From an uncultured Christensenella sp. (GTDB lineage: Bacteria; Bacillota; Clostridia; Christensenellales; DTU072), in the NCBI GenBank assembly GCA_964450015.1, contig CAYVEU010000001.1, positions 1 through 44,209 on the forward strand: a stretch of 44,209 bases of DNA, read 5' to 3'. Both the position numbers and the translations under genes were made by a program. Shown here piece after piece: positions 25,536-42,909 of this stretch. How positions within the stretch are numbered: position 1 is the first letter of the stretch; each line of letters opens with the position of its first letter. The notes below the pieces were generated by a model, which was not told where the DNA came from, made no database searches, and worked only from the letters and a program-made list of their open reading frames with translations.

Positions 25536-28500
25536 TTATTTTATCGACTGCTTCCTGCGGTAAACGATGACGCCTATAACGACGGCTAACGCGACTACTG
25601 CACCTAGCGCAATCACGACTATGCCGTAAACGTTGATGTAGTCAAGCTCGAAGTAGTAAACGCTCTCGTTTCCCAAAGCGTCAGTTACTATCAATTCGTA
25701 GTTTCCCCTTTCTGTGATTATGGAATTAGGCGAACAGTTTACAAGCTCGCCGTTGCGATAAAGCATATACGTAACGTTATCTTTATTTGCCTTTGAAAAA
25801 ACGACTTGATTTTTTTCTTGTGTTATTTCAATCTCCGGTGCAACGGTATCTACTGTTAAATCTAACGCAAATTCATTCTCGCCGTTGGAAAACACAAGAG
25901 AATAATTGCCGTTATCTTTTAATTCGACGGATACCCCCACGGCATAATCGTTGCCGTCCTTTGCAACAAATATTTGATAGTCATCTGGTGCCGTAATCAA
26001 GTAATTGTTTGCCGATGACGGCACGATAACCCATTCGGTAGTAAAATTATTGCCCAGTTCATCAGTAGCGGTTAGCGAATAACTGCCTACCTCTTTTATC
26101 AAAGACGTATAACTCACTTCCTCGCCGTCCTTTATCAGAATAGTGGTTACTTTTTCGGAAAACTTAATGTTTACCGAGCCTGTTAATATTTGTCCAGAAA
26201 GTAACGACGGGCTTATTTGTACGTCCACATCATTATCTATCACAAATTTATACGTGCTTTCATTCCCCGCAACGTCAACGGCATATACCGTGTACGTCCC
26301 GCTCTCTTCAACAGTGCAGGAACCCTCTATCTCGGTGGTTTCGCCTGCCTTGTCCTTGAAATAAGCGCGTCGCGCGCCCTCAACACTAATTTCTACTTCG
26401 TCCGCCGATTTCCCACCGTTTTCAACGGTTGCGGTAATCAACGGCGCCGTCTGGTCGATAATAATTAGAAACTCTATGTCATTACCGTTCATATCGGAAA
26501 TATAAACGCTATATTCGCCCTCAAGCTCAATACGCGCGCCCTCAATAACGCTAACGTTGCTCTCGCCATTGACGGTAAAAGCTTGATACGCTTCATTCAC
26601 TTGTATTGCAACGCCTGTTCTTGAAAAAATAACGTCGCCGTCGTAATTAAATACCCCTTTTAAGGCATAGCTTACTGACGCGTCAACGGTCACGGTAAAG
26701 CTAACGCTGTTGCCCACGTAATCGGTTGCGGTAAAATAATAAATTCTTTCATCGCTTAATACGCTACCGTCATAAGTCGTAAAATTAATGCCGTTCGTAG
26801 AATACGTAATTATTGCGTTCTCTTCATCAACAACCACGTTAAAGGACCGATTGGACACGCTGTCAATTTGCACATTGGTACCCTCGTCGGTTAAAACATT
26901 AGGCGTCGGCGCAGTCTTGTCAATTACAAGCTCGATTATCGCAACGTTGCCTGCCATGTCCTCTATTGTAACAATGTAACGCCCCTCAAGAGATACCGTT
27001 TCGTCTGCACCAAACGTATAACCGTCGGCGTTTTCCACGTCGAATCTCTTTACATCTTCTTGTAAAACTACGGCTAAGTCCGTTCTGGACGAATAGACGT
27101 TTCCGTTATTTACGTAATTGCCGCGCACTGTGAAGCTCACGGTAACGTCAATAATAACAACAAACGCGCTTTCGTTCCCTACGCGGTCGCTCAATACAAA
27201 ATAGTACGTCCCGCTTTCGGTAAATGCCGTGCCGTCGTAATCGCTATAAGTCGTACCGTTGGGCGAAACCGTTATTCTAACGTCTTCTTCTTCGCAACTT
27301 ACGGAAAAACTCTCGTTTATCTTTGAGTTAAGCTCAACAACGCCCGTTTCCGTCGTTATTAACGCCTCGGGCGGCGTCTTATCAATTACAAGCTCGATTA
27401 TAGCGATGTTGCCTGCTAGGTCTGCTATCGTTACCGTATAGCTACCCTCGCGTGAAACCGTTTCTCCAACGCCAAACGCATAACCGTTAGAACTTTCGAC
27501 GTCAAATCGCATTATATCTTCTCTCGTTTCAACGCTCAAGCCCGTTCTGGATATGTAAAGATTGCCGTTGTTTATGTAGTTGCCCTTTACCGTATACACG
27601 ATACTTAAATCAATCGTTATCGCAAACGAAACTGTGTTCCCGATAAAATCTGAAACTTCAAAATAGTACGTCCCTGCAACGCTACACACGCTACCGTCAT
27701 ACGCATTGTATTTGATACCATTCATTGAAAATGTTATATCGGCTTTATCCTCTTGACACGTCACGATAAAGCCGTCATTGATAATCTCGTTTGCGCCTAC
27801 TTCTTTGTCATTTACTGTCACAATCTCATAACTAGGTGCAGTTTTATCAATTATTATCGTGATAACTTCTTCATTGCCTGCAAGGTCTTTTATTTTTACG
27901 GTATGGGTTCCTTCTTGTGTTATTTTTTCTTCCGGTGCAAACTCATTAGCCAGACTGTCAACGATAAATTCCGAATACTCCTCTTTTACCGTTACGCTTA
28001 CTCCGCTAATGGAAATATACGCGCCGTCCGACGTGCGCTTATATATTCCGTTGACGGTATAATCGACAACCAAATCTATTTCGACAGTAAATGCAATTTC
28101 ATTTCCGACAAGATCTGACAGTCGGAAATAATAAACCCCACTTTCGGCTAACGGTTCGCCGTTATAAACGCTACCGTTTGACGTTTCGGATGCCGCGATA
28201 TTAAGCGTATAATTGCTTTCCGCACACGATACGAAAAACGCCTTGTTTACCTTGCCGTTCGTGACTACGCTACCGTCTTCTGCAATGATTATAGGAACGG
28301 GCGCGGTATAGTCTAAGATAAGCGTTACGTTCGCAACGTTACCAACCGTGTCCGTAATCGTTACGTAGTAAACGCCCTCAAGCGCAATGCGCTCTTCGGG
28401 TAAAAAAGTTATATCGTTCTCATTCTTTACGACAAACGCGGAAAAGTCCTCGTTGACAGTTACCGTAAAATTGTGCCTTGAAATATAGCTCCCGTCTTCA

Positions 28501-31500
28501 AGTTCTTTATACGTCCCTTTGACGCTAAATTGCACGGTCTTGTCAATCGTAACGCTAAATGAAAGCGTATTATTCATTCTATCGGTCATTTTGAAGTTAT
28601 AAACGCCCTCATCGGATAAGACATCCCCGTTATAGCCTACGTTTTGTGTCCCTCTACCGATAGCTATGCTGACGTTCTCTTCCTCGCATGATACGCTAAA
28701 GCTTTCATTTGTTGCGCCGTTCGCTTCGAGCATCGCGCCCGACGCCGTTACGATGATGGGAACAGGCGGAAGTTTATCTATTATCACTATGACGGTAATT
28801 GCATTGCCGCATACATCAACTATTTCAAATAAATAGGTTCCGTCTTCTGAAATCGTGCCGCCGTTCATTACGCTTATGCCGTTACTGGACGTGCAATTAA
28901 ACGTCTTCGTGTGTTCCGTGACAGTTAGTACTAAATTGTTTTTTGAAATATAGCTACCGTCCTCAAGCATTGAATACGGTCCGTCTATTATGTAGCTTAC
29001 TACGTTATCTAGCGTTATCTTAAAACTGGTTACGTTGCCCACTTGGTCGTTTAGTGTGAAAACGTACGTTCCCGCTTTAGTAATCAACGTGCGCTTGGTA
29101 TATAGCGTTTCGCCAAACGAACCCAACACGTCATTCTGGTTATAGTATCGAGCAGTAACGTTCGCCTCGTCCCACGTGACGCTAAACGATGAGCTTGTAA
29201 CCGTTTCCTCTTCGATTGTATCGCCGTTCTCGGCGGTAATCGTCGCCATTGGCGCAACGCAGTCAATCTCAAACCTATACTCTACGAATAGGTTCATATC
29301 GTTTTCAACGTACAAAAAGAACTTATAAATTAAGCTCGTTGCCTCATTTGCCGTTATGGACGCTATCGTATATCCCTCTTTTTCGGTCATAGTTAATACG
29401 CTATCGTACCTAACCCACTCTTTGTTAATAAGCGCATAAAGATAAATGGCGTCGCCGTCGTAATAATCAAAAGAAACGTCCTTGTTTGTTATCCCGCCCT
29501 CTTTTACGCCTTTTAGCGAACCCGACGGCAAGCCTTTCATATAAAATAACGGGTCTGTTTCTACCGTTCTACCGAATATATCGGAAAATCTAACCACATA
29601 TTTACCGCCAGTGCGCAACACATAAGACAAAGTTACTGCTGAAATAGGCGTACCGTCGCTGTCATACGTCAACTCCGTGTAATCGCCTAAATACGAAACT
29701 TTGAAAATATGTATTTCCGTTATGCCGTTATTCGAGCTGTCGTAATTAAGCGTCAACGTGCACCGCGTTTCGTTCGTCAGCGACGTGTTGGAAAGATATG
29801 CCGTTTCGCCCGCAATACGAATTTCAAAAGAAAGATAATTCATGCTACGGTCGTACACGTTTATAACGTACTTGCCATAATAACCGTTCTCAAGCGTCAA
29901 TACGGGCAATTCGTCGCCGTTTACGAAAACCGTATCGCTCATTCCTCGTCCAGATACGCACACCATGACGAACTCGTCAATATTGTCAAATAACATTTGC
30001 AAGTCCAACATAACGTATAACATAACGCCCACGTTAGCTTGGACAAATTCGTTAGTAAACGTAATTGCCGCCTGCTCGCCGTTCCCAAAAGTCGCCGTAG
30101 CGTTTAACGTCGGCATATCGTTATCGAGATAAACGACATATCGTTGCAAATTCCCACACAAGTCACTTTCCGAAACGAGATAATACCCCTGTATATTTGC
30201 ACCCTCTTTCTCCAACGCTTCGCTTATTGCCGTATCGTACGGTATTTCTATATTGCGACCTGTAAAAAGCATATAATCGTTGGCTATATACTGAAATTGG
30301 ACCTTTCTTGTGTTTCCCGTAACGCCCGCTATCGGGGAAATGAATTTATAGTTATGCTGAATTAAAAATAACGGTAAATTCGCATAATTTGCCAAAATCG
30401 ACGGATACGTCATATTCTGGCGCGTCAACGCGTCATCTCGCGTTATCCCGTTGCCGTCAGTCGGGTTCGGATAAGTATTGTTTCCTAATTGGGTTTCTCT
30501 TCGCTCTGAAACGTAAGCCGACGCATATTTCAATATGGCAGTATCTAAATCAGAACGCGACGTGTAAATTTGATAAACACTTTCGTTGGATATATTAACG
30601 TACGACCAACCGTTTTCCAGTTGCTCTACGCGGTATTCCCACTCTTTGGCGATAGCGAAATCAAGTGCGCTGTCACGACTGGTAAAAGAGTAGCTACCTG
30701 CTATATTCGCAAATATTCTACTAGGCAAGTTCGCGATATACCAGGTTGCAACCTTATACCCATTTTTTATGTTATCCATGTTCCCGAAATCGTCACGGTA
30801 ATAAAGCTTTACCGTTTGAGTTTCCGATTTATTCCCAAAGTCATCTACAGCGTAAAAAGTCCATACGCCGTAGTTGCTAACGTCAAGCGCAATATTGACG
30901 GTTCCGACACCGTTCGTCCGTTCTGCTCCGCCATTAAGCGCATATTTTATGGTTGCATTGTGTATATCCGACGCCGTATACGTGAACTCATAGTTCAAGT
31001 ATTCCGCTACGCTTGAAACGTCAGGTGCCGTCTTATCAATAATTATATGATAGGACGAAACGTTGCCCGCGCTATCGCTCAAGCACATTAAATAATAGCC
31101 CTCGTCACTTAACGTGGTATTGCGTGTATACGCAGTAGCCGCCGACGTCGGAAAAGCCGTTGTATTTTTTGAATTATTTATTGAATATCTTGCCGTCAGC
31201 GTATCGTTATTATTCATACGTTGCGTTCCGACGCCCTCTACATTGGTTCCCCACGTTGCAGAAAAACTGGCGTTCGAGCCGTTATATGTCAAGCCGCTTA
31301 AAAGCCCTTGAAGCGTTAGTTTAGGGGCTACCTTATCGATAGTACATTGATATGACGAACTATTGCCCGCCTTATCTGTAATTATGAATAGATAGTTCCC
31401 TTCTTCTGAAATTTGGCTTTTACTTGTGTATTCAATGTTTGCCGTTGTCGGAAAAGCCCCTGTAATCGACTTGCCATAAGTTACGACTATTTCATCGTTG

Positions 31501-34064
31501 CTATTCGTTCTCGCGGCTCCGACGCCACCGACTGTAGTTGCCCACGATGCGCTAACCGTCGTGTTTGAAAAATTGCTTCCGTTCACACCGTATAAAGTCA
31601 ATAACGGCGCGACGTTATCTATCGTTACTTTATAATCTGTATAATTCCCTGCCTTGTCGCTAATACGGAAAAAATAATTGCCGTCGTTCTTAAATTCGGT
31701 TCCAGACGTAAACGTTGTTGCCGCAGACGTCGGAAAGGTTGCCGACGTTAAAGTCGAATACTTTGCCGTAATCGCGTCGCTACTGTTTAGCAAGCATTCC
31801 GAACGCCAACTAACCGTGATACTGCCCTTATAAAAACCGCCGTTAGAAATGCTATTTAGCGTCGGTGCTTCCGTATCGAGATAAATTGTATACACGGCAC
31901 TTTGGTTGCCTGCTAAATCCACTCCGTAAAATTGATACGTACCATTTATCGACGCCTTATCCACTGTATAGCTTTTAGAACTCGTGCTACTATACGCTTT
32001 ACCCTCGGCACCTTTATAATACAACTTAGAAAAATTCTTATCTTCCACGCTTACGGTAAAGTTTGCATTGGTAAACCCGCCACTTTGAACAACACAAGAA
32101 ACAATAGGCAACGCCGTATCTATCGTGAACGTGTATGTTCTACTATTCTTCGCCTTATCTATCGCAACTATCGTATAGACACCATCTTCGGAAAACGATG
32201 TTCCTGTATTAAACGCCGTAGCTGTGCCGCTATCTTTCTTCCACGTTGCGCCCTCAATGTTCGTATCGCTGAATTTTACCGTTACCGCAACTTTAGCATA
32301 CCCACCATTAGCGGTGGTTCCGCCACTTAAGGTAATTTCCGGCAAGATTGTATCGATTGTAAACGTGAACATCGTACTGTTCTTCGCCTTATCCGTCGCG
32401 ACTATCGTATAAACGCCGTCCTCGGAAAACAATTTCCCCGTACCAAACGGCGCGGGCGTGCCGTTGCCTTTCTTCCATGTTGCGCCCTCAATATTCGTAT
32501 CGCTAAACTTTACCGTAACAGCGGTCTTTGCGTACCCACCGTCAGCGGTAGTTCCACCGCTCAACTTAATTTCTGGAAGCGTTTTATCTATCGTAAACGT
32601 TTTTGTTGACTTTCTTTTTGCTTTATCGTACGCTGTGACTGTGTAAACGCCGTCGGCAAGACTATTGTCTACCGTAAATGTAGTTTCAGCAGTCCATGTT
32701 CCCGCAATATTTGTAATTTCGTAATAATCTAAGTTCGTATCGCTAACGCTTACCTTTACCGACTGTTCCTTTTTGAAATATTCTCCGTTAGTCGTTATTA
32801 TCGGGTCTAGCGTATCTATTGTAAACGTGTACGTTCTGCTGTTCTGCGCCTTATCCGTCGCAACTATCGTATAAACGCCGTCCTCGGAAAACGATTTTCC
32901 CGTGTCAAACGGCTCTGCGGTGCCGTTGCCTTTCTTCCATGTTGCGCCCTCAATATTCGTATCGCTAAACTTTACCGTGACTGCGGTCTTTGCATACCCG
33001 CCGTCAGTTGTGGTTCCACCGCTCAACTCAATTTTCGGAAGCGTTTTGTCTATCGTAAACGTTTGGCTCGCCTCGTTATTGGCTTTGTCGTATGCGGTAA
33101 TCGTATAAACGCCATCGGCAAGGTCTTTTGCCGCATAAGTTTTATCACCAGTCAAGCCGCTCTCAATATTCGTAATTTTATAATCTTTTATATTTGTATC
33201 GCTAACGCCTACTTCTACCAACTGATTTTCATTAAAATATTCGCCATTTGTCGTTATTGTCGGGTTTACCGTATCAAGAATCACATAGTAATCGGCACTT
33301 CTATTGCCTGCTTTATCTACGGCATAAAACGTATATTTTCCGTCCCCGTTGTCGCTAGATATAGTAATTGTATTATTCGTTGTAAATTTATAAGCTTCAG
33401 AATTTTTCTGATAATGTATTTCATGAAAATTCTTTTCTGTGGCGGTTATGGTAAAATCATTAGAAGTATATCCGTTATTTCCCACCGTTCCTGATGATAA
33501 AGTCGGTTTTGTAACATCAACATAAATGGTTTCGGACGTAAAATCTATCGTATGTAGGTGTCCGTTCAAAGAACGTTTCCCCGTACCACTAATATGTACT
33601 TTATATTCGCCTTCCTCTACATTAAACGAAAATTCACCACCACCCTTATTCCATTGGTCATTCGCACCATGGTCTGTTTCCATTGCACGCTTAGTTGAAT
33701 AGTCGCTTCCGCCGCTCTGGCTAAGTAGCTCTATTGTTAACTCATCACAGTAAGCATAAAAACCGCCCATGCTTGCACTACCCATAGTAAACTCTAAAGC
33801 CACCTTTTTCTCGGGTATATACATTGAACCGTCACTGACGGCATTTTTTAATAAGAGGTTTGCTTGAAAATAATACGTGGTACTCGCATTACCGCTTCCT
33901 TTATAAAAGTCAAAATTTGCAATAAGTGTAGTTTTCCCGCTGGCCGCACAAGACGCGTCTTTGCTTATAGGGACAAATACGCTGATTGCTATAATTGCAA
34001 ATACCAAAATAAATAGCAAAATCTTGCCAAAAGATTGTTTCCTTTTTACCTCATAGCTTGACAT
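25536..34064 (-). CDS. Giant (2842 aa) surface protein made of Ig-like/beta-sandwich repeats, with an N-terminal signal/anchor and a C-terminal TM anchor
   Basis: N-terminus KILLFILVFAIIAISVF. Many ~78-aa modules end in ..DGVYT(I/V)xAxDKA(G/K)Nxxxxx(F)TID(K)T.P. About six ~152-aa two-module super-repeats. C-terminus YGIVVIALGAVVALAVVIGVIVYRRKQSIK with no LPXTG. The start overlaps the T4CP stop by 19 nt, with RBS gaggagg. Confidence 0.85.
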   Translation of the reverse strand: MSSYEVKRKQSFGKILLFILVFAIIAISVFVPISKDASCAASGKTTLIANFDFYKGSGNASTTYYFQANLLLKNAVSDGSMYIPEKKVALEFTMGSASMGGFYAYCDELTIELLSQSGGSDYSTKRAMETDHGANDQWNKGGGEFSFNVEEGEYKVHISGTGKRSLNGHLHTIDFTSETIYVDVTKPTLSSGTVGNNGYTSNDFTITATEKNFHEIHYQKNSEAYKFTTNNTITISSDNGDGKYTFYAVDKAGNRSADYYVILDTVNPTITTNGEYFNENQLVEVGVSDTNIKDYKITNIESGLTGDKTYAAKDLADGVYTITAYDKANNEASQTFTIDKTLPKIELSGGTTTDGGYAKTAVTVKFSDTNIEGATWKKGNGTAEPFDTGKSFSEDGVYTIVATDKAQNSRTYTFTIDTLDPIITTNGEYFKKEQSVKVSVSDTNLDYYEITNIAGTWTAETTFTVDNSLADGVYTVTAYDKAKRKSTKTFTIDKTLPEIKLSGGTTADGGYAKTAVTVKFSDTNIEGATWKKGNGTPAPFGTGKLFSEDGVYTIVATDKAKNSTMFTFTIDTILPEITLSGGTTANGGYAKVAVTVKFSDTNIEGATWKKDSGTATAFNTGTSFSEDGVYTIVAIDKAKNSRTYTFTIDTALPIVSCVVQSGGFTNANFTVSVEDKNFSKLYYKGAEGKAYSSTSSKSYTVDKASINGTYQFYGVDLAGNQSAVYTIYLDTEAPTLNSISNGGFYKGSITVSWRSECLLNSSDAITAKYSTLTSATFPTSAATTFTSGTEFKNDGNYFFRISDKAGNYTDYKVTIDNVAPLLTLYGVNGSNFSNTTVSASWATTVGGVGAARTNSNDEIVVTYGKSITGAFPTTANIEYTSKSQISEEGNYLFIITDKAGNSSSYQCTIDKVAPKLTLQGLLSGLTYNGSNASFSATWGTNVEGVGTQRMNNNDTLTARYSINNSKNTTAFPTSAATAYTRNTTLSDEGYYLMCLSDSAGNVSSYHIIIDKTAPDVSSVAEYLNYEFTYTASDIHNATIKYALNGGAERTNGVGTVNIALDVSNYGVWTFYAVDDFGNKSETQTVKLYYRDDFGNMDNIKNGYKVATWYIANLPSRIFANIAGSYSFTSRDSALDFAIAKEWEYRVEQLENGWSYVNISNESVYQIYTSRSDLDTAILKYASAYVSERRETQLGNNTYPNPTDGNGITRDDALTRQNMTYPSILANYANLPLFLIQHNYKFISPIAGVTGNTRKVQFQYIANDYMLFTGRNIEIPYDTAISEALEKEGANIQGYYLVSESDLCGNLQRYVVYLDNDMPTLNATATFGNGEQAAITFTNEFVQANVGVMLYVMLDLQMLFDNIDEFVMVCVSGRGMSDTVFVNGDELPVLTLENGYYGKYVINVYDRSMNYLSFEIRIAGETAYLSNTSLTNETRCTLTLNYDSSNNGITEIHIFKVSYLGDYTELTYDSDGTPISAVTLSYVLRTGGKYVVRFSDIFGRTVETDPLFYMKGLPSGSLKGVKEGGITNKDVSFDYYDGDAIYLYALINKEWVRYDSVLTMTEKEGYTIASITANEATSLIYKFFLYVENDMNLFVEYRFEIDCVAPMATITAENGDTIEEETVTSSSFSVTWDEANVTARYYNQNDVLGSFGETLYTKRTLITKAGTYVFTLNDQVGNVTSFKITLDNVVSYIIDGPYSMLEDGSYISKNNLVLTVTEHTKTFNCTSSNGISVMNGGTISEDGTYLFEIVDVCGNAITVIVIIDKLPPVPIIVTASGAMLEANGATNESFSVSCEEENVSIAIGRGTQNVGYNGDVLSDEGVYNFKMTDRMNNTLSFSVTIDKTVQFSVKGTYKELEDGSYISRHNFTVTVNEDFSAFVVKNENDITFLPEERIALEGVYYVTITDTVGNVANVTLILDYTAPVPIIIAEDGSVVTNGKVNKAFFVSCAESNYTLNIAASETSNGSVYNGEPLAESGVYYFRLSDLVGNEIAFTVEIDLVVDYTVNGIYKRTSDGAYISISGVSVTVKEEYSEFIVDSLANEFAPEEKITQEGTHTVKIKDLAGNEEVITIIIDKTAPSYEIVTVNDKEVGANEIINDGFIVTCQEDKADITFSMNGIKYNAYDGSVCSVAGTYYFEVSDFIGNTVSFAITIDLSIVYTVKGNYINNGNLYISRTGLSVETREDIMRFDVESSNGYAFGVGETVSREGSYTVTIADLAGNIAIIELVIDKTPPEALITTETGVVELNSKINESFSVSCEEEDVRITVSPNGTTYSDYDGTAFTESGTYYFVLSDRVGNESAFVVIIDVTVSFTVRGNYVNNGNVYSSRTDLAVVLQEDVKRFDVENADGYTFGADETVSLEGRYIVTIEDMAGNVAIIELVIDKTAPTPNVLTDEGTNVQIDSVSNRSFNVVVDEENAIITYSTNGINFTTYDGSVLSDERIYYFTATDYVGNSVSFTVTVDASVSYALKGVFNYDGDVIFSRTGVAIQVNEAYQAFTVNGESNVSVIEGARIELEGEYSVYISDMNGNDIEFLIIIDQTAPLITATVENGGKSADEVEISVEGARRAYFKDKAGETTEIEGSCTVEESGTYTVYAVDVAGNESTYKFVIDNDVDVQISPSLLSGQILTGSVNIKFSEKVTTILIKDGEEVSYTSLIKEVGSYSLTATDELGNNFTTEWVIVPSSANNYLITAPDDYQIFVAKDGNDYAVGVSVELKDNGNYSLVFSNGENEFALDLTVDTVAPEIEITQEKNQVVFSKANKDNVTYMLYRNGELVNCSPNSIITERGNYELIVTDALGNESVYYFELDYINVYGIVVIALGAVVALAVVIGVIVYRRKQSIK
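32215..33140 (-). repeat. Three near-identical intragenic DNA repeats (~235 nt each) inside the giant gene
   Basis: Units encode LP(K/E)I.LSGGTT.(D/N)GGYAK.AVTVKFSDTNIEGATWKK... Near-identical plus-strand shadow ORFs at 32224, 32458 and 32902 show conservation at the DNA level. Confidence 0.8.
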
Positions 34065-36298
34065 TCTCTTTCTACCTCCTCAATTTGCTCTGGCACAAAA
34101 CACCGAAATAAAATAAAATTCCTTACCTGTATAAACGTTGCAGAAAGTATATAATTACCCTTACCCGCCGCGTCATCAGCTAATCTATCTAGTAATACTA
34201 ATTTGGTCTTAATATCGCATCCGTAAAGTAGCTCAAACGTATCTTTCGGCGTCTTTCCCTTTAGGCATTGCAACCGTTTTTGCACGTCCGCCAACATTTG
34301 TACCGCCTTGCGCTTCCGCAACTCGTTTAACTCTTCCGTTTTATTTTCAACGACAAGTTGCGTATCGTTTCTCACGTCATCTATTTGTTGATAGTCCTCG
34401 CTTAAAAGCTGTTTTTCGGTTGTCATAAACGCCGTATATTTAGCTATATCGTAGTGCATAACGTCCTCATCAAAATCGATAAACTTACTAGGCTTAAGGT
34501 TTGCAGGCTCGGCGTTGTAAATATCTTTTGCTTTGAAAAACGGGGTAAATTTTGCCCTAATCGGATAATTACCCAAACACACAACTATTGCGTTGCCGAA
34601 AATTTTGTTTGCGGGGTCGTTCAAATGCTCAAGCTCATTCGGATAAATAAGCGGTACACTCTGCGCCGACGTCGATACCGACATTTCCTTATTCTCCGAA
34701 TAGCTGACCTGCTTAACTTTCTTTTTGCCGCACATATCTGAAAATGCTTTTCTTGTGTTCTCGTCATTTGTTCCGATAAATATCTGCGCGTTGCAGTTGC
34801 TCCGGATAATCGCCGCTACCTCTTTACCGTATTTATCGTCAAGTTGATTAAAGTCTTGGATAACAGGCATAAGCCATATATGCCTCGAACGTCCGACGGT
34901 AACTATGCTGTCAAGCTTATGGAAACGCGGCAAGTTGCCGAACTCGTCCATAATAAAGTAAACGTTACGCAATAGCTCTTGCGATTTTGTCTTGCCCGCT
35001 ATTTTATTCTCCGTTGCCTTTTCAACGAGGGCTTTATACATTTGAGTGATAAACAAGCTGACAAGCTTGTGACGGTTCTCCTTTTCGTCTGGAATTTTCA
35101 AGAATAACGCGTTCGCGGTTTCGTCAAAATCGCTAAACTCTATTGCGTTGCCGCTAGTAAGCGCGGCAATTCCCGTGTCCGCCATCCACGTTAAGTATTG
35201 ACTAACATCGCTCAAGTACGACGATAAAGTTCTATCCTCGGAAACGAGCACCGTATTCGACAAGCCGTGCGACTTCGATTTCGGCGAGCGAGTATCGAAA
35301 TACGCACGTAACTCTTCGCAATCTCCTTTGGCGTAGTCGCTTACGGTCCTATAAAGATTATAAAGACTAAATTTTTCCCGCGGCATATAGCCGTCGTAAA
35401 CGTCTTCCCAAAACGCAACTGCAATAGCAAGCAACAAATCGCGCGCACCCTTTTCCCAACCGCTTTCGTTTTTATTTTCAATCGGACACATGGTATAAAT
35501 TAAGTCCTGTAAGTCAACGAAAATTTCGTCCTTTAACCGTGCGACAATAGCCTTTCTAGCGTCCTCTGCTTCAGATTGCGTCAAGTATACATTGCCGTCG
35601 CAAAAATACTTGCCCCGTTTTTGCACTATCCTACAACCGTGAATGCGGTCTGTTTTGCGCCATACGTCATTAAATGGGTTCCATTGGGTAGAGTGATAAA
35701 CGTCAGCTAAATCTATAACGCTAACCTTGTACCCCTCTGCCATAAGCTTTTTACCATGGTGGTTATATAACTCCCCCTTTGGGTCGGTTATAAGCATAGA
35801 CGGCTTCGTCTTCGTCCTACACAATATTTCTATAGTCGGATCTATAATTGCCGACGTCTTGCCCGTTCCAGTCGTACCGACTAGAATAGTGTGCGTCGGG
35901 TCTTTCAAAACGACGTTTATATCATTGCCTTTTACCTCGGCAGAAATCGGAACGCCGTCATTAACTTTATGTAACTGACTTAATTTTGTCACGGTATATC
36001 CCTCATTCTTCGATATTTCCGTCCTGCTCATAAAATGAGAGTTCTCTAGGTCTGCGTTTACCTTTAGAACGCGTTTGCTTCCTCGCACCCTTATATCAAA
36101 AGCGACAACGCCTACTATAACCGCTATTACTGCACCCCATATCGCATACAGTTTCCCGTCTGTAATCGCCTCTACAAAATCTGTCTTAAATATGGTCATG
36201 GACAAAAAAGCCAACGCCAAAAGGACTACGACCGCCCCTGCTGTCAGTCCGAATATTGTCAATATTGTTTTTTGTAGTTTCGTCAACTCTTTCTTCAT
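34046..36298 (-). CDS. Type IV coupling protein (VirD4/TraG family)
   Basis: 750 aa with two N-terminal TM helices. Walker A VGTTGTGKTS and Walker B YFIMDEFGNLP. Confidence 0.85.
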   Translation of the reverse strand: MKKELTKLQKTILTIFGLTAGAVVVLLALAFLSMTIFKTDFVEAITDGKLYAIWGAVIAVIVGVVAFDIRVRGSKRVLKVNADLENSHFMSRTEISKNEGYTVTKLSQLHKVNDGVPISAEVKGNDINVVLKDPTHTILVGTTGTGKTSAIIDPTIEILCRTKTKPSMLITDPKGELYNHHGKKLMAEGYKVSVIDLADVYHSTQWNPFNDVWRKTDRIHGCRIVQKRGKYFCDGNVYLTQSEAEDARKAIVARLKDEIFVDLQDLIYTMCPIENKNESGWEKGARDLLLAIAVAFWEDVYDGYMPREKFSLYNLYRTVSDYAKGDCEELRAYFDTRSPKSKSHGLSNTVLVSEDRTLSSYLSDVSQYLTWMADTGIAALTSGNAIEFSDFDETANALFLKIPDEKENRHKLVSLFITQMYKALVEKATENKIAGKTKSQELLRNVYFIMDEFGNLPRFHKLDSIVTVGRSRHIWLMPVIQDFNQLDDKYGKEVAAIIRSNCNAQIFIGTNDENTRKAFSDMCGKKKVKQVSYSENKEMSVSTSAQSVPLIYPNELEHLNDPANKIFGNAIVVCLGNYPIRAKFTPFFKAKDIYNAEPANLKPSKFIDFDEDVMHYDIAKYTAFMTTEKQLLSEDYQQIDDVRNDTQLVVENKTEELNELRKRKAVQMLADVQKRLQCLKGKTPKDTFELLYGCDIKTKLVLLDRLADDAAGKGNYILSATFIQVRNFILFRCFVPEQIEEVERECQAMR

Positions 36299-36300
36299 TC

Positions 36301-37602
36301 CTAACCGTTTACCGCTTTTCCGTATTCGTTTTCACGTTCAATTTGTTTTACTGTCTTCATAAAGTTTGCCCGCTCCCCTTTGCAAACTTCGGTAAGCATT
36401 TTTTGAATATCCCGAATTGCGTCTACACGCTTTCCACGTCTGCGACGCGCCGCTATTTTTAGGCTCCTATCGTTCACACCGTATTTTCGTTTTTTATCGC
36501 GTAAATCGCCGTCCTTTATCATCTTGCAAAGCCCCATAACCACACCGCGTACGCGCTTTTGATAATCAGCCTGCAAACGCTCAAAATAATCAACATTTTT
36601 AAGGTCTACGTACTTCGGCTCAAGCCCTGGTCTACCCGCCATCACATCTTCTATCTCATCTTTGCTCATTCGCCTATTGTTGACGTAAGCAAGCTTATTT
36701 TCTTTTACGAGCTTAACCACGTTTTCCTTAACGCTCGCTAATTCCTTTATCATCTGCTCATGCGCCAGCCGTGCGTTCTCATCGGAAGCTATAAGCAAGT
36801 TGGCCACTAAATCAATTTGCGGATAAAGCGGTTCCATATTCTTGGACCCCGCCTGCAATCTACCAGTTTTAGGCAAACTTGCTATTAACCGATTAAGTTC
36901 ACGGTTAAGTTGCGTATTTCGCTTTACACCAGTTACAACGTCTTTGCGCACCACTTTTAATGCGTCCATTGCTTTATTTCTGGCAACGTAATATTCTTCC
37001 CCATGCTCGTCTAGGTGCATATTTGCGCTCACAAGATAATTATCAATAGCTTTTGCCTCGAATTTGCCTTTCTTTGTGTAACAAAGCTCATTGTTTTTAT
37101 CCCTACGCAACGGCTGTTTCTCGAAAAACGCAAAATGTATATGGCGGTTATCCGTATCATCATGCAAAGACGCATAAAGGCGTACGTTCTTTGGCTTCAA
37201 GTGCGTACGCTCTAAAAAAACGTTAAACGTCTGCTTTAGGAACTTAACGGCGTTCTCTTGAACATCAAACACTTCGTTATACTGTTCTTCAAAGCTTATG
37301 AAGCCGTGCCAGATTATGCTTTCCGTCTTTGCCAACTCCTCTTTCAGTTCCGCTACTTGCTCATCGCTCAAGACACCGTTCATATCGAAAAGTCCGCCGT
37401 TCGTACCCTCGCGCGTGAAGTAGTGCTCAGCGTCCTTATTCTTTACTACCTTTTTATTGTCCAAAGCATACGTAAAAAAGTTGTACTCGCTCGTAAGGTT
37501 ATAGAACTTACGACGTGCTTCGTACTTCTCACGGTCTTTACCTTTTAGGTAAGACGGTGGGTTGGGCTGTGTAAAAGCGATATTAAATAGTGCTTTTGGC
37601 AT
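36301..37602 (-). CDS. Putative conjugative relaxase (HUH/3-His type)
   Basis: 433 aa. LHDDTDNRHIHFAFFEK fits the relaxase H.D...(N/H).H.H metal-binding motif. It lies immediately upstream of the T4CP gene. RBS aggaga. Confidence 0.6.
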   Translation of the reverse strand: MPKALFNIAFTQPNPPSYLKGKDREKYEARRKFYNLTSEYNFFTYALDNKKVVKNKDAEHYFTREGTNGGLFDMNGVLSDEQVAELKEELAKTESIIWHGFISFEEQYNEVFDVQENAVKFLKQTFNVFLERTHLKPKNVRLYASLHDDTDNRHIHFAFFEKQPLRRDKNNELCYTKKGKFEAKAIDNYLVSANMHLDEHGEEYYVARNKAMDALKVVRKDVVTGVKRNTQLNRELNRLIASLPKTGRLQAGSKNMEPLYPQIDLVANLLIASDENARLAHEQMIKELASVKENVVKLVKENKLAYVNNRRMSKDEIEDVMAGRPGLEPKYVDLKNVDYFERLQADYQKRVRGVVMGLCKMIKDGDLRDKKRKYGVNDRSLKIAARRRRGKRVDAIRDIQKMLTEVCKGERANFMKTVKQIERENEYGKAVNG

Positions 37603-37616
37603 TGCCTATCTCCTCT

Positions 37617-37931
37617 CTATAAGTCAAAAATGTCGTTATAAACGGTCATAACAAGACTTGTCCTTGTGTGTTCGGTTTTGCTGTTCTCCAACATTCGTAT
37701 CGTCCAGTCCCTGTGTGTTTCTATCGCCCTCTTACGACTGTCTTCGATGAGTTTGCAATTATTGCAAAATTCTAAATTGTCAATGACGTCTTCGTTATAA
37801 AGAAACCTGTTTAAGCCGCTTGCCAACGCACACGTTTCTATCGTTTTACCGAAAAAAGCGTAATAGTTATCGCTATTACCGATAAATTCAAGCTTTTTTT
37901 GCAATATCGCATTCATTTCTACGTTTTCCAT
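37617..37931 (-). CDS. Hypothetical protein (104 aa)
   Basis: ATG with RBS aggag, packed tightly between the RHH gene and the relaxase gene. Confidence 0.5.
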   Translation of the reverse strand: MENVEMNAILQKKLEFIGNSDNYYAFFGKTIETCALASGLNRFLYNEDVIDNLEFCNNCKLIEDSRKRAIETHRDWTIRMLENSKTEHTRTSLVMTVYNDIFDL

Positions 37932-37935
37932 GCTA

Positions 37936-38385
37936 TTACTCCTTTTTCATAAACCGCTTAATTAGGCTGTCTTTAACACGCTGTATATAGTCTGGCAAGC
38001 TCGATAAATACCCGCTCTCTATCAGTTCGCTACTAACCGCCTCATTCTTTACACGCATTAGTTCCGCATTGTAAAGAGTAGAAACAAGCATTTCCATAAC
38101 GTTCATCATAACGAAAATGTCATCTACCGTTACCGACACGTCCTTTACTTTTTTGTTAAGCTCGTTAAGCTTGTCGTCGCTCCTCTCGAAAACGGCTTTC
38201 TCGCTTTGTATCTGACGTTTATCGCCCTCTTTCATTTGCTTGACGCCAACCGTCAACGCCCTATTAAGTAGCTCGTTCATCGACGAAAATTTGCCATTGT
38301 CTGCAAGTGCATAAAGCGCAGTCAGAAGCTCATCATCATAGACGCGCAGTCTGAACGAATTGGTTTTATTGTCTTGTGTTTTCAT
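37936..38385 (-). CDS. Ribbon-helix-helix protein, candidate relaxosome accessory/auto-repressor
   Basis: 149 aa from the internal ATG (38383-38385), which has RBS gggagagga. N-terminus NSFRLRVYDDELLTALYALADNGKFSSMNELLNRAL fits an RHH pattern. Confidence 0.5.
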   Translation of the reverse strand: MKTQDNKTNSFRLRVYDDELLTALYALADNGKFSSMNELLNRALTVGVKQMKEGDKRQIQSEKAVFERSDDKLNELNKKVKDVSVTVDDIFVMMNVMEMLVSTLYNAELMRVKNEAVSSELIESGYLSSLPDYIQRVKDSLIKRFMKKE

Positions 38386-38438
38386 ATCCTCTCCCGACGC
38401 GCAAGCGTCAACCGAAAAATGGTTTCCATTTTGTCCAA

Positions 38439-38535
38439 ATTTTGGTGTGCCACCGTGGGGCACCAAAATTCCTAGGTGTGCCACCACATAACACTTTGTG
38501 TTAAAAGCCGAAAATTCGGTTTGGTGTGCCACCGT
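38439..38535. promoter_or_regulatory. Repeat-rich region upstream of the mob operon: three copies of GGTGTGCCACC plus an inverted repeat (candidate oriT/operator)
   Basis: ggtgtgccacc at 38444-38454, 38475-38485 and 38523-38533. The 16-mer tttggtgtgccaccgt occurs at 38441-38456 and 38520-38535. Inverted repeat attttggtgtgcc..ggcaccaaaat at 38439-38469. Confidence 0.45.
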
Positions 38536-38584: not shown

Positions 38585-41452
38585 TCACTTTATTTTTTTG
38601 CTACCGTTTTTCTGTCCGCCGCTATAACGAACCTTCAAGCTTGAGCAAGCTTTCTGTATCGAGCGCGTTACATACGCCGCATTTTTCGTTTGAGGACGAT
38701 AACGACCAGAGCTTTCAAAGACGCTACGCATTTGTTCCTCGTTGCAATCGGAAAAGAAAGCCAACATGTTCAGCAACGCTAAATCATCGCGGTGTTTGTC
38801 GCCTGTGACGTCGCCGCCATTATAAAGTGTATCGAACATTTCCCCTCTCTTCGAATTGCGTATCCTCTCTATCAATTCGGCGTCGCTTTGATAGCGTAAA
38901 TCGGTCGTTCTCGGCGTGTACGCTCTAGGTGCAGGTTCTTCTTTCGCCCGCTCCCCTAATTGCTTTCGTAACCACGTCATGGTCGCGGATGGGCATTGAG
39001 TTAGTTCCTTTGACTTGCCAAACATGTTGCCAGTCATTGACATGAAGCGGGAATTATCGTAAACTTCGAGTTCTTCTCCGTTCAACTCCGTACGGTTGCA
39101 ATATTTGCCATTGGATAAAATATCGTCCTTTAAGAAAAAGTGAAGCCCATTTCCAGACGTGCTCTTTTCACAATAGACGTTAGCTAGTTCGGGAACGAGC
39201 TTGTTTGCAATATCGTTCATTTCGCCCTCTGCCTTAGTCGTAGCTACACCGTTAAGCTTCCCGTCTTTCACTATGCACTTATCGAGGTCTATACAACTTA
39301 TACCGCTACCGTCAAGGGCGAACGACAAGCCCTCACAGTTATTTTCAACGGCATAATTGTATGCAGTATCAAAATCAGCCCACGTCGAGCTATCGTCGAT
39401 TTTCGCCCATTTCCCAGTATGCGCCGAAAGAACGAACTTGTCCTTCTTCCCTTTTTCTTCGTTCCATTTCGTCCTATATACACACCAGTTCGGCATTCCT
39501 TTCATCTCGGCAGGCACGTTATTTTTGAGTTCTTCCAACCTTGCAACGTTCCGTTTTGACGCCGAAACCCGCTGCGCGCTCTTGCCACTTTCTTTGCCAT
39601 CTAAAACGGCGCGCAATTCCTCGCTTGTCAATTTGACCTCGCGTCCATCGTCTTTAAGGGTAAATTCAAAATTCGGCGCCGTTACTAATCTAACTGCGTT
39701 TTCTTCGACATGCAATTTACTAGTCGGAGCCAAAAACACAAACGAGGAAAACTCCACGCCCTTTGGCATTCTCAACATCGTAGATTTTCCGTACTCTTTG
39801 AGTTTATTTTCAAGCGGAAAAACAAGTTCAACTTGTCCGACTTGTTGAGCTTGTTCGGCTTGTTGAACTTGTTGTTGTGGCTCTTTTTTGTGTTCTTCTC
39901 GAGCTTTACTCTTTACCGAAATTTTCTTTTGCGTTTTGTCTTTCTCAATTACAACGACGTCATGAGCTTCGCTAAGTTGCTGTATGTAATTATCGGCTAC
40001 ATGATATGGAAAGCCCACCATCGGAACGCGTTCTCTAAGTCCAACGTCGCGCCCCGTTAAGGTTAAATTTAGCTCTTTGGCTACGTCTTGTGCTTTGTCC
40101 CCCATGACTTCGTAAAAATCGCCTATTCGTTGAGCAACGACGGCGTTCTGGTTCTCGTTCTGAACGAGGGCGTAATCTCGATAATACGGTTGCGCTCCAA
40201 ATATTTTTATCTTCTCAATGCCGTTTTCACTTCCGACGTCATACTGTATATCGTTCGCCCACTTGCAACCGTCAGCTTGCGAATAACATACATTTAATAT
40301 TGTTTTATATGTATTCTTTCCTTTGAACGCCTCGTTCATCTCGCCTAAGAGTTGCTCCGCCTGCTCTAACGGCATACTGGTGTTCTCTTTCACAAAACCT
40401 ATTTCAGACTGCCCATAAAGAACGTAAGGCTTCCCCTCTTTATTTACCAGAGTTTCTATCTCTTGACGTAGAGCTTCTTCTTGAGCGACGTTTTGTTTTT
40501 CTTTTGTGTTCTCCACCGTCTTTGCTTTTTCAAGATAATTTTCTTTGATATAGCTCGTTATCTTGCCTGCGTCTGCGGCGGCACGATAGAATACGTTCGG
40601 GTCTTTTTTTACTACGGATAACCACGATTTCAAATAAGCCGCATGATTTGCTATTTCCGCACCGGAAAGGTCTATGCCCATGTCACTCTGCATAAATGCC
40701 GACGTAAGCTCTGCGCGCAATTCTTCGACTACGTAATTTGCGCTACCAAAACCGCCGCTCATATCACGATTTAACCGACTGCTATGCCCCGTCGAGTGCC
40801 CTATTTCGTGCAAAGCCGTAGCGTAATAATCGTTCATTGTCTTGAACTTGTCAACTTCGGGCAAATGAATATCGTCCGTTCTCAAGCTATAATATGCGTT
40901 GTTCCCACCGTCATAATGTACAGGTGCCGCGCTGTTGGCTATTATCGTTTCTATGCGCTCGTTCTGCGCTTGCCGCTCCTCTGCGGTCATTTCTTTTTCT
41001 CTTGTGTTTTCTGGGAAATTATCGCATTGTTCGGCGTTAAAAACATTGTAATATTTCAAAACTCTGCTAACGTGCTCGGCAAGATACTCATTGCGTTCTT
41101 CGTCCGACATACCATCTAATACGCTCTCATCAAACGGCTTCTTTGTCTTTTTGTCGTACTGCGACCAGAAAAAGACGTCGCTTGACTTCGAACCCGCCTT
41201 TATCGACGCGCCTAAGTCCTTGGCTTGGTTAAACGTTACCCATCGAGGGTCTGTAAAGCCCTGCCGTTCGGCGGCTACAGCAAGGAATATGGAATTTAAG
41301 CCGTTATAATTTTTCAACGTGGCTCCGTTAAACGGCACGTTGGTTGAATACCACCCTTTAACCCAACGTTCGGGGTTCTTCTCCATGCTCTCTATTAATG
41401 CGTTGAGCATAGTCATACGCTTTTCTTCTACAAGCTTCCGATAATCAGCCAT
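38585..41452 (-). CDS. Polyvalent protein: ArdC-N ssDNA-binding domain + zincin (HEXXH) protease + MutS domain-I-like module + Q-rich linker + archaeo-eukaryotic primase (prim-pol) + primase C-terminal helical domain
   Basis: 955 aa.
- ArdC-N: NGATLKNYNGLNSIFL..WVTFNQAKDLGASIKAGSK.
- Zincin: ALHEIGHSTGH.
- MutS_I-like: GDFYEVMGDKAQDVAKELNLTLTGR..VPMVGFPYHVADNYIQQL.
- AEP motifs: CIDLDKC, STSGNGLHFFL, EVYDNSRFMSMTGN.
- C-terminal domain: DDLALLNMLAFFSDCNEEQMRSVFESSGRYRP. Confidence 0.8.
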   Translation of the reverse strand: MADYRKLVEEKRMTMLNALIESMEKNPERWVKGWYSTNVPFNGATLKNYNGLNSIFLAVAAERQGFTDPRWVTFNQAKDLGASIKAGSKSSDVFFWSQYDKKTKKPFDESVLDGMSDEERNEYLAEHVSRVLKYYNVFNAEQCDNFPENTREKEMTAEERQAQNERIETIIANSAAPVHYDGGNNAYYSLRTDDIHLPEVDKFKTMNDYYATALHEIGHSTGHSSRLNRDMSGGFGSANYVVEELRAELTSAFMQSDMGIDLSGAEIANHAAYLKSWLSVVKKDPNVFYRAAADAGKITSYIKENYLEKAKTVENTKEKQNVAQEEALRQEIETLVNKEGKPYVLYGQSEIGFVKENTSMPLEQAEQLLGEMNEAFKGKNTYKTILNVCYSQADGCKWANDIQYDVGSENGIEKIKIFGAQPYYRDYALVQNENQNAVVAQRIGDFYEVMGDKAQDVAKELNLTLTGRDVGLRERVPMVGFPYHVADNYIQQLSEAHDVVVIEKDKTQKKISVKSKAREEHKKEPQQQVQQAEQAQQVGQVELVFPLENKLKEYGKSTMLRMPKGVEFSSFVFLAPTSKLHVEENAVRLVTAPNFEFTLKDDGREVKLTSEELRAVLDGKESGKSAQRVSASKRNVARLEELKNNVPAEMKGMPNWCVYRTKWNEEKGKKDKFVLSAHTGKWAKIDDSSTWADFDTAYNYAVENNCEGLSFALDGSGISCIDLDKCIVKDGKLNGVATTKAEGEMNDIANKLVPELANVYCEKSTSGNGLHFFLKDDILSNGKYCNRTELNGEELEVYDNSRFMSMTGNMFGKSKELTQCPSATMTWLRKQLGERAKEEPAPRAYTPRTTDLRYQSDAELIERIRNSKRGEMFDTLYNGGDVTGDKHRDDLALLNMLAFFSDCNEEQMRSVFESSGRYRPQTKNAAYVTRSIQKACSSLKVRYSGGQKNGSKKIK

Positions 41453-41636: not shown

Positions 41637-41778
41637 ATCAGCTCCTTTAAGAACACAAGACAGAACCACCTCGCCACATCAACCTCTTGCTTTACGCGCA
41701 TATATTCTTGTAAATAAGTATTGGCTTCTTATTTGTGTTCTCTTGTTAGTTATTTATTATTTATAATTTATATATCGT

Positions 41779-41892
41779 CTGCAATTTTTGACGTACCCCA
41801 CTGCAATTTTTGACGTACCCCACTGCAATTTTTGACGTACGTCATTTTTTGACCCGCGTCAATTTTTGACCCACGTCAATTTTTGACGTACC
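41779..41892 (+). repeat. Iteron-like array: six same-orientation CAATTTTTGAC cores (3 x 22-bp units, then 3 x ~17-bp units)
   Basis: ctgcaatttttgacgtacccca at 41779-41800 and 41801-41822; a truncated unit at 41823-41840; gtcattttttgacccgc at 41841; gtcaatttttgacccac at 41858; gtcaatttttgacgtacc at 41875. An AT-rich tract (41720-41778) lies adjacent. Confidence 0.85.
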
Positions 41893-42246
41893 TCAACTTT
41901 CGGTTTTATTGCTCGGGCAAAGAATAGCCACTCCGCGCTTGAGTTGATTTATGTAATCCAAGTTGGCACGGTACGCGCAACGTTTAACGTTGTCTTTGGT
42001 AAATTCACGTTTGAATATGTAATTTTTATCTTGTAGGTTTTGTAACATTGCCGTAACCGTGTTGTGTGACTTTATATTGCCAAAAGTTTGCATAAACTTT
42101 AGCGACCCTGTAAACTCGCTCTCCCCGTCTTGAGAAAAACTGTAGATTATGGCAAATATGATAAGCTCGTTACCTTTCAACCTTAAGACGTTCAGCATCC
42201 ACCCTAGTACCGTGTAAAAGTTCTCGTCCCTTATTGTGTTATTCAT
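41893..42246 (-). CDS. Winged-helix DNA-binding protein (RepA_N/DnaD-like), candidate initiator or regulator binding the adjacent iterons
   Basis: 117 aa from the ATG at 42244-42246 (RBS aaaggag). FYTVLGWMLNVLRLKGNELIIFAIIYSFSQDGESEFTGSLKFMQTFGNIKSHNTVTAMLQNLQDKNYI follows the RepA_N-like pattern FY.(L/V)P..L......L...E..L...L. Confidence 0.5.
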   Translation of the reverse strand: MNNTIRDENFYTVLGWMLNVLRLKGNELIIFAIIYSFSQDGESEFTGSLKFMQTFGNIKSHNTVTAMLQNLQDKNYIFKREFTKDNVKRCAYRANLDYINQLKRGVAILCPSNKTES

Positions 42247-42324
42247 TACAGTTTCTCCTTTACTCATTGTCCTTAGAGGCGTTCCCCCTCTCGGACAGAC
42301 ACTCCCCCTTTTTTGCAATAAAAA

Positions 42325-42380: not shown

Positions 42381-42431
42381 GACATTCTCTCTCTAAATCT
42401 CTCCACTAATACTTAGTAGAGAGAGAATGTC
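42381..42431. repeat. 15-bp perfect inverted repeat (gacattctctctcta / tagagagagaatgtc) with a 21-nt loop
   Basis: Read base by base: 42381-42395 pairs with 42417-42431. Confidence 0.8.
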
Positions 42432-42858: not shown

Positions 42859-42909
42859 TTATCCACAGTTATACAGGAAGTTATCCACAATTATGCACGG
42901 TTATCCACA
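42859..42909 (+). promoter_or_regulatory. Phased DnaA-box cluster: three perfect TTATCCACA boxes plus two degenerate boxes, all in the same orientation
   Basis: Perfect boxes at 42859-42867, 42881-42889 and 42901-42909. Degenerate boxes ttatacagg (42869) and ttatgcacg (42891). Spacing is 10-12 bp. Confidence 0.75.

Follow-up and report, generated by a model that had tools for sequence, protein, structure and literature searches.

A MutS domain I between ArdC and prim-pol modules in a polyvalent protein of a putative conjugative element from an uncultured Christensenella sp.

A 955-aa polyvalent protein at the head of a relaxase/T4SS operon

The stretch of DNA analysed here (the window) comprises the 44,209 nucleotides (nt) of positions 1 to 44,209 of contig CAYVEU010000001.1, from the assembly GCA_964450015.1 of an uncultured Christensenella sp. 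On its minus strand, at 38585-41452, it contains an ATG-initiated open reading frame (ORF) of 955 amino acids (aa), which brings together in one chain several unrelated effector and DNA-handling domains: an ArdC-N domain, a metallopeptidase (MPTase), possibly an LPD25 domain, a domain I of the mismatch recognition protein MutS (MutS_I), an all-β domain, an archaeo-eukaryotic primase (AEP) core and a helix-bundle domain (HBD). An original prediction made from the letters alone had described this ORF as a fusion of ArdC, MutS domain I and a primase. Its position, strand and length were as predicted and every motif quoted was present, while the LPD25 match and the all-β domain were missing from that description.

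The gene heads an operon that encodes a MobL relaxase, a type IV coupling protein (T4CP) and components of a type IV secretion system (T4SS), and the gene content of the window points to a conjugative module of the Firmicutes type. The ATG of the 955-aa gene overlaps the stop codon of a 74-aa ORF located upstream (ATGGCTGA) and is preceded by a Shine-Dalgarno-like sequence (GAGGGGGG); the two genes are translationally coupled. The following features were assigned to the gene and its product:

38585-41452, minus strand: the whole polyvalent gene (955-aa ORF)
41039-41413 (aa 14-138), minus strand: single-stranded DNA (ssDNA)-binding ArdC-N domain, Pfam PF08401 (ArdcN), 96 bits
40574-40960 (aa 165-293), minus strand: MPTase-PolyVal zincin metallopeptidase, Pfam PF18818, 134 bits
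40220-40441 (aa 338-411), minus strand: LPD25-like region, PF18840, a weak assignment
39911-40195 (aa 420-514), minus strand: MutS domain I, Pfam PF01624 and fold
39833-39910 (aa 515-540), minus strand: disordered linker, Lys/Glu-rich and then Gln-rich (...EPQQQVQQAEQAQQVGQ), predicted local distance difference test (pLDDT) <50 at aa 515-537
39602-39832 (aa 541-617), minus strand: all-β domain, AlphaFold model
38948-39556 (aa 633-835), minus strand: AEP prim-pol catalytic core, PDB, Foldseek and PHROG matches
38618-38905 (aa 850-945), minus strand: NrS-1-type HBD of the primase, PF22763, followed by a Lys-rich tail

A full-length AlphaFold2 model, built from a 54-sequence alignment, reached a predicted template modelling score (pTM) of 0.40 and contains five confident modules, aa 1-310 (ArdC), 420-514 (MutS_I), 541-617 (β), 633-835 (AEP) and 850-945 (HBD), separated by linkers of low pLDDT. 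The low-confidence stretches correspond to aa 312-418, where the nominal LPD25 is located, and to aa 515-537, within the Gln-rich linker that had been noted after MutS_I. The LPD25 match itself (PF18840, aa 338-411) is borderline, with 27.6 bits for a cutoff of 27 and a pLDDT <50 at aa 338-362 and 377-418. When the whole model was used as a Foldseek query, the N300 fragment of the NrS-1 primase, the ArdC protein of plasmid R388 and MutS were all recovered. The model suggests a protein made of independently folded modules carried by flexible linkers, like beads on a string.

Identification of the MutS domain I

The segment originally described as resembling domain I of MutS was placed in this family by both sequence profile and fold. 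The MutS_I profile (PF01624) aligns through its positions 2-92 of 113 to aa 422-511, with 57.1 bits (E 2.6e-15) where the gathering cutoff is 20.6, and the segment alone retrieves residues 11-94 of E. coli MutS from the PDB sequences (3e-10). An AlphaFold2 model of aa 405-535 based on 43 relatives has a pLDDT >90 throughout MutS_I, and the 50 best Foldseek matches of this model in the PDB all correspond to domain I of MutS or MSH proteins; the superposition on E. coli MutS (1e3m_A) gives a root-mean-square deviation (rmsd) of 1.6 Å over 84 columns with 30% identity. The length had been underestimated, since the domain covers ∼95 aa (420-514) and not ∼60. The Phe-x-Glu mismatch-contact motif is intact, as F446-Y-E448 (nt 40109-40117), and lies within the sequence GDFYEVMGDKAQDVAKELNLTLTGRDVGLRERVPMVGFPYHVADNYIQQL (aa 444-493).

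No Pfam match to MutS_II, MutS_III, MutS_IV or MutS_V was found in the 955-aa protein. The protein is not a MutS and has only domain I in common with this family, since the two MutS equivalog models of NCBIfam reach 66 and 58 bits, far below their cutoffs of 480 and 642, and align through their first ∼85 positions only. Compared with bacterial MutS (E. coli 1e3m and the Clostridial MutS of loci L076-L083), it shows an equivalent fold of domain I and retains the Phe-x-Glu wedge as well as the LTxxGR and PMxGxPYH motifs, whereas the connector, lever, clamp and ATP-binding cassette (ABC) ATPase domains are all absent.

Conservation and origin of the mobile MutS_I

We aligned 101 MutS_I copies from mobile elements with ten Clostridial MutS, nine of them full-length, and E. 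coli MutS. The MutS_I of the 955-aa protein is 44-48% identical to domain I of Clostridial MutS, while its identity to the E. coli domain is 31%. The neighbour-joining tree places 100 of the 101 mobile copies in one clade separate from true MutS; this clade is closest to the MutS of Clostridia and has in common with it the LTLTGRD..G..RxPMxGxPYH motifs. According to the published survey, the MutS-I of polyvalent proteins is probably derived from classical MutS (PMC5512222).

The conservation per column is nearly equal in mobile and true copies, and the conserved columns in both are R442, G444, D445, F446, Y447, E448, A454, L463-T-L-T-G-R-D469, G471, L472, E474, R475, P477, M478, G480, P482, Y483, H484 and Y489. 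Some positions are specific to the mobile clade, for example G451 (F/Y in MutS), and the C-E-Q motif has been lost. The Phe and the Glu of Phe-x-Glu are invariant in the 43-sequence alignment of relatives, and when the copies are sorted by architecture class, the Phe is kept in 100% and the Glu in 93-100%. The MutS motifs, these two residues included, are thus essentially invariant in mobile copies despite an overall identity of ∼45-50%; their invariance therefore indicates that the DNA-contact surface, which in MutS touches the mismatch, is under strong purifying selection.

The ArdC, prim-pol and β modules

The N-terminal part had been recognized as ArdC-like with an HEIGH zincin motif, in agreement with the 96 and 134 bits obtained for PF08401 and PF18818. 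It matches R388 ArdC (6sna) with 1.8e-31 in a PDB sequence search, and its fold aligns to 6i89 and 6sna with target-normalised Foldseek TM scores of 0.76-0.80. The succession of an ArdC-N domain and an HExxH...E zincin domain is the layout of the ArdC family; HEIGH corresponds to aa 215-219 (nt 40796-40810), and the alignment of 54 homologs shows no variation at H215, E216, H219, E243 or E244. ArdC of R388/pSa (6sna/6i89) has the same ArdC-N ssDNA-binding domain and HExxH metallopeptidase. However, it stops after the peptidase, at ∼300 aa, whereas the 955-aa protein adds ∼650 residues that include MutS_I and the primase. R388 ArdC acts in the recipient against the type I restriction system HsdRMS, a protection for which its protease is dispensable; its expression in the recipient matters, and its export is not needed (PMC7213743).

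The C-terminal half contains the predicted primase. In PDB sequence searches, aa 639-916 match 7ola, a 797-aa 'DNA primase' (1e-25), and the protein matches the NrS-1 primase with ∼7e-11; NrS-1 N300 is recovered by Foldseek from the full-length model (E 1.5e-17), and a PHROG DNA primase family matches with 9e-57. The AEP motifs are DLD at aa 722-724, SGNGLH at 766-771 and EVYDNSRFMSMTG at 796-808, and D722, D724, S766, G769, H771, E796, Y798, T807 and G808 are invariant in the 54 homologs. The helical domain that had been announced at the C-terminus is also present (pLDDT ∼90), but it belongs to the NrS-1 HBD family (PF22763, NrS1-1_pol-like_HBD, aa 889-943, 43 bits for a cutoff of 27.9) and not to PriCT. 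Since the motif residues of both zincin and primase are invariant in the 54 homologs, the two enzymes look active.

Phage NrS-1 N300 with its HBD (6a9w, 7rr4) and 7ola resemble the 955-aa protein in having an AEP core with DxD, sGxGxH and ExY...TG followed by a C-terminal HBD. The NrS-1 and 7ola enzymes run on into helicase or other replication domains, whereas the 955-aa protein lacks a helicase and possesses an extra domain (aa 541-617) N-terminal to its core. This domain is modelled as eight β-strands with a pLDDT ∼90, has no Pfam match, and is found ahead of the AEP core in ∼110 of the 120 clusters of homologs described below, with or without MutS_I; in this clade of primases it may serve for DNA binding or for regulation. 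The idea that it could be a remnant of the MutS connector was rejected, as the Foldseek alignments to MutS (165-218 columns) have an rmsd of ∼13 Å and the domain also occurs in relatives devoid of MutS_I.

Like the plasmid primases RP4 TraC1 and IncI Sog, the 955-aa protein combines a module of the ArdC-N/MPTase type with a primase in a single conjugative-element protein, presumably with the transferred strand as target. However, the primase of TraC1 and Sog is of the Toprim (DnaG) type, unrelated to the AEP prim-pol and HBD found here, and TraC1 has no MutS_I. The original statement that ArdC and plasmid primases travel with the transferred strand applies to TraC1 and Sog, which are transferred to recipients, but needs softening for ArdC, since the export of R388 ArdC is not required (PMC7213743).

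The fusion belongs to a catalogued class of polyvalent proteins

The combination of these domains had been thought to be without previous description. It was in fact catalogued computationally by Iyer, Burroughs, Anand, de Souza and Aravind (2017, J Bacteriol, PMC5512222), who reported MutS-I in polyvalent proteins encoded by conjugative elements from Bacteroidetes and Firmicutes. In their survey, ∼80% of the polyvalent MutS-I co-occur with ArdC-N, Primpol and LPD25 are also partners, and the proposed role of MutS-I is to recognise ssDNA features, distinct or short, that belong to the element, soon after entry (PMC5512222). The 955-aa protein resembles this class in the domains that it combines (an ArdC-N header, MPTase, MutS-I and Primpol, with a borderline LPD25), in its relaxase/T4SS neighbourhood and in the Clostridia-type hosts of its homologs. 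The neighbouring relaxase is of the MobL type, and the 955-aa protein is 53% identical to its best full-length relative, P0002 (933 aa), whose locus has the same gene order: small ORF, polyvalent gene, 177-aa ORF, MobL, T4CP and giant protein. The ArdC–MutS_I–prim-pol fusion therefore belongs to a class that is known since 2017 and that gut Clostridia commonly carry. Experimental characterization is another matter, as our literature search found no bench study of a MutS domain I located outside MutS or in conjugative elements.

Among the 120 best homolog clusters, all have in common the scaffold ArdC-N, MPTase, variable middle, AEP and HBD. The middle cassette is a MutS_I in 27 of them, which thus have the ArdC–MutS_I–prim-pol order, no recognisable insert is seen in 75, and LPD25, AAA_28, YodL or MuF_C are the other inserts. 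MutS_I is one of several swappable inserts in a constant scaffold. The exact 955-aa sequence has no record in public assemblies or in the public protein collection; a tblastn search of the PLSDB plasmids matched the ArdC third alone, with no record covering at least 80% of the protein.

Other homes of the mobile MutS_I

A word-indexed protein search with the segment alone gave short proteins only and missed the polyvalent relatives; the census of architectures consequently relies on a MutS_I profile search of 1.84 billion representatives and on a scan of the GTDB species genomes. The profile search gave at least 350 mobile MutS_I clusters (50% identity) at E<=1e-30, the top 150 of which are mostly proteins of 300-370 aa, with some of 1177-4659 aa. 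The genome scan gave at least 598 confirmed MutS_I stretches, nearly all in metagenome-assembled genomes of gut Clostridia such as Christensenellaceae, and among the best 80 matches true MutS is confined to the weakest ones.

The commonest home of the mobile domain is a protein of ∼300-370 aa with an N-terminal PcfK domain (PF14058), a MutS_I and a conserved acidic C-terminal tail (loci L004-L073, e.g. L017:9449-10444, L030:9473-10462 and L002:4081-6394). In 41 of the 45 long loci, the next gene encodes PcfJ, and the cassette is not described in Iyer et al. 2017. The ±10 kb flanks of the PcfK-MutS_I genes contain no relatives of the ArdC, prim-pol, MobL, T4CP or VirB4 of the window, except in L008, and these cassettes thus lie outside T4SS modules of the kind found here. 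A role of the small genes as suppliers of MutS_I in trans to such elements is consequently unsupported. The possibility that the LPD25 region is a diverged PcfK was also rejected, with an hhalign probability of 0.5% and no match of the PcfK HMM to any ArdC-type or giant protein; a PcfK profile search of the PDB found no match even at E<=10.

The linker of the PcfK-MutS_I proteins contains, ∼40-60 aa upstream of MutS_I, a near-invariant Q-x-S-L-F-D (e.g. aa 128-133 of the L017 ORF and aa 133 in L062). The strict form Q.[SD]LF is present in 24 of 70 of these proteins versus 0.5% of shuffles, and QxSLF resembles the β-sliding-clamp-binding motif of MutS and polymerases. The 955-aa protein contains no Q.[SD]LF motif, and its QVELVF (aa 540-545) was rejected as a clamp-binding linear motif because most of it falls in the first strand predicted for the β domain (aa 541-546). 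Among the ArdC-type relatives, a few carry QPSLF close to their C-terminus or QMSLF directly after MutS_I. Proteins of the solo and PcfK types end in a conserved tail, ...EEEMREFDGDIEEP...AFDxxALxxLxExFGxxLxLR (alignment A1), which has no equivalent in the 955-aa protein.

Further partners of MutS_I are the oligonucleotide-binding (OB) fold of single-stranded DNA-binding protein (SSB), ArdC-N and MPTase with two MutS_I, and a combination of MuF_C, LPD25, AAA_28 and HBD, while the giant proteins carry an Eco57I-type methylase, an SNF2 helicase and AEP with HBD. From these architectures, the recurring partners of the mobile domain are modules that handle ssDNA. As MutS_I occurs in PcfK fusions, in an SSB fusion and in other proteins, the 2017 statement that polyvalent proteins are its sole home outside MutS (PMC5512222) is outdated.

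Individual cases extend this diversity. MutS_I is fused with the SSB OB-fold domain in P0322, and the polyvalent proteins P0205, P0253 and P0246 each contain two MutS_I stretches; MutS acts as a dimer, of which a single domain I touches the mismatch. At L008:9227-11326, a 699-aa protein with a MutS_I at ∼aa 259-344 and no other Pfam domain is encoded directly upstream of homologs of the T4CP, the 633-aa protein and the VirB4 of the window, which represents a third way to place MutS_I in a related conjugative module. Short proteins of 74-153 aa consisting of MutS_I only are found in Klosneuvirus and in contigs of uncultured Siphoviridae and Myoviridae from the gut (BFVD entries A0A8S5PPT8, A0A8S5PL02, A0A8S5L9N2 and A0A1V0SJ64), and the stand-alone domain is therefore present in viruses too.

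Possible role of MutS_I in establishment of the element

We favour, with a probability of about 60%, the explanation that the 955-aa polyvalent protein serves the 'establishment' of a conjugative element of the Firmicutes type, with MutS_I as a tethered sensor of DNA distortion. The overall identity of the protein seems to us very probable, while the sensor step taken by itself is a tentative proposal, somewhat short of even odds. According to this explanation, the protein would act on the transferred single strand inside the recipient. By analogy with the known families, ArdC-N would coat the incoming ssDNA or anchor on it, the ArdC module would counteract restriction, the prim-pol would make a primer for complementary-strand synthesis, as TraC1 and Sog do with another fold, and the peptidase may split the modules apart or attack a host target. 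The Phe wedge of MutS_I could stack on mispaired or unpaired bases in imperfect hairpins, in duplex patches of the entering strand or at primer-template junctions. MutS_I would then constitute a second, structure-specific grip besides ArdC-N that positions the protein and its primase on the DNA of the element. It could not signal repair, because the clamp, the ATPase and the parts that activate MutL are absent. Recognition of the incoming strand was one of two roles suggested originally; it coincides with the published hypothesis, and the fusion partners ArdC-N, SSB and primase fit it.

Several points weigh against this explanation. The affinity of MutS for DNA comes mostly from its clamp domains, which are absent here, and an isolated domain I may bind weakly. 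The 75 of 120 closest scaffolds that lack MutS_I indicate that it is accessory and not essential for priming. Its commonest home, PcfK-MutS_I-PcfJ, is without primase and outside T4SS modules of the kind found here, and the role of MutS_I therefore cannot be specific to primase targeting. Moreover, the literature yielded no experiments on the domain outside MutS, and transfer of the 955-aa protein through the T4SS is an assumption; export is not required for R388 ArdC (PMC7213743).

The other role suggested originally was that of a decoy. On DNA that is entering or has just been primed, a captured MutS tip could occupy mismatches or compete with the MutS of the host and, being unable to activate MutL, shield the element from nicking directed by mismatch repair (MMR) or from MutS anti-recombination. 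This would suit a domain that looks like a recent derivative of the MutS of the host lineage (44-48% Clostridial versus 31% E. coli), that keeps all conserved motifs including F-x-E and that, devoid of domains II-V, could bind without signalling; the near-invariant QxSLF of the PcfK-MutS_I relatives, which resembles the β-clamp-binding motif of MutS, points in the same direction. However, nothing specific to a decoy is seen in the 955-aa protein, which has neither a QxSLF-type motif nor a region interacting with MutL or the clamp. In addition, MMR limits homeologous recombination and is not known to restrict elements that integrate site-specifically or replicate autonomously, an isolated domain I is expected to compete poorly with a dimeric, clamp-equipped MutS, and the fusion partners are ssDNA-handling modules and not repair-directed anti-defence effectors. 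We consider a decoy unlikely, and less supported than the distortion sensor. The same idea can be widened to the whole mobile clade (ArdC–prim-pol fusion, giants and PcfK-MutS_I-PcfJ) as a family of anti-mismatch-repair or anti-anti-recombination effectors, for which we also see a low probability; if true, a captured host mismatch sensor, stripped of its signalling parts, would blind host MutS at the replisome or on incoming DNA.

Two further explanations place the function of MutS_I nearer to the polymerase or deny it altogether. MutS_I might detect misincorporation by an error-prone AEP polymerase, or a distorted primer-template, and then limit extension or promote hand-off to the host replicase. 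The co-occurrence of MutS_I with AEP and HBD in one chain, in the 27 of 120 best clusters and in the giants L011, L043 and L047, and a flexible linker that permits action in cis are compatible with such a fidelity control. Yet most mobile copies, those of PcfK-MutS_I and of the SSB fusion, are not joined to a primase in one chain, most prim-pol scaffolds have no MutS_I, and no contact between domains is predicted (pTM 0.40), which leaves this explanation improbable. Finally, the high variability of the middle cassette, with which most relatives dispense in its MutS_I form, and the borderline, poorly modelled LPD25 match beside it could suggest a relic of domain shuffling or a spacer. A functionless passenger is hard to reconcile with at least 350 clusters (50% identity) at E<=1e-30, a separate mobile clade in which F, E and the MutS motifs are essentially invariant at ∼45-50% identity, and a confidently predicted fold (pLDDT >90), and we regard it as very improbable.

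The fusion is thus real but of a known class, and its remaining value lies in the biology of the large mobile MutS_I clade of gut Clostridia. Conjugative elements might use a fragment of a repair protein as a grip on their own DNA or as a means of disturbing repair in the host, and either outcome would bear on how mobile elements, including carriers of resistance, become established in new hosts.

Neighbouring features of the conjugative element

Downstream of the polyvalent gene, the operon contains the following genes:

34046-38532, minus strand: 198-aa and 104-aa ORFs (no family), MobL and T4CP, Pfam
36301-37602, minus strand: MobL relaxase, Pfam
34046-36298, minus strand: VirD4/TraG-type coupling protein, Pfam

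They are followed on the same strand by genes for a 2842-aa protein, a T4SS pilin, a 633-aa protein, a VirB4-like ATPase, ParA and a PBECR4 nuclease. The 2842-aa ORF (25536-34064, minus strand), located between the coupling protein and the pilin, has no Pfam match at E<=0.001; in the P0002 locus (L084), a giant protein is similarly placed after the T4CP.

Upstream of the polyvalent operon, a 141-aa ORF (41893-42318, minus strand) without Pfam family matches the PHROG replication-initiation families phrog_6969 (9e-21), phrog_270 and phrog_428. Between this ORF and the operon, six direct repeats with a spacing of 17 or 22 nt (core GTCAAAAATTGAC / GTCAAAAATTGCAG, 41775-41903) resemble iterons or operators, to which the Rep-like protein probably binds. 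Upstream of the Rep-like ORF, two perfect 15-nt inverted copies (GACATTCTCTCTCTA / TAGAGAGAGAATGTC) are separated by a 21-nt spacer (42381-42431). Farther on, three exact copies of TGTGGATAA, which is the DnaA-box consensus TTATCCACA on the opposite strand, occur within 51 nt (42859-42909), for 0.28 expected in the whole window; this cluster could belong to an origin of replication or to a regulatory region bordering the element.

Two RNA genes were also detected. The 'drum' small RNA motif RF02958 (18747-18854, minus strand, 57.9 bits for a gathering score of 43) lies within the element, between the PBECR4 nuclease and ParA genes. A transfer-messenger RNA (tmRNA) gene at 9116-9462 (plus strand) was found by Rfam (120 bits) and not called by ARAGORN; tmRNA genes are frequent integration sites of genomic islands, and the conjugative module starts some kb to the right of this one.

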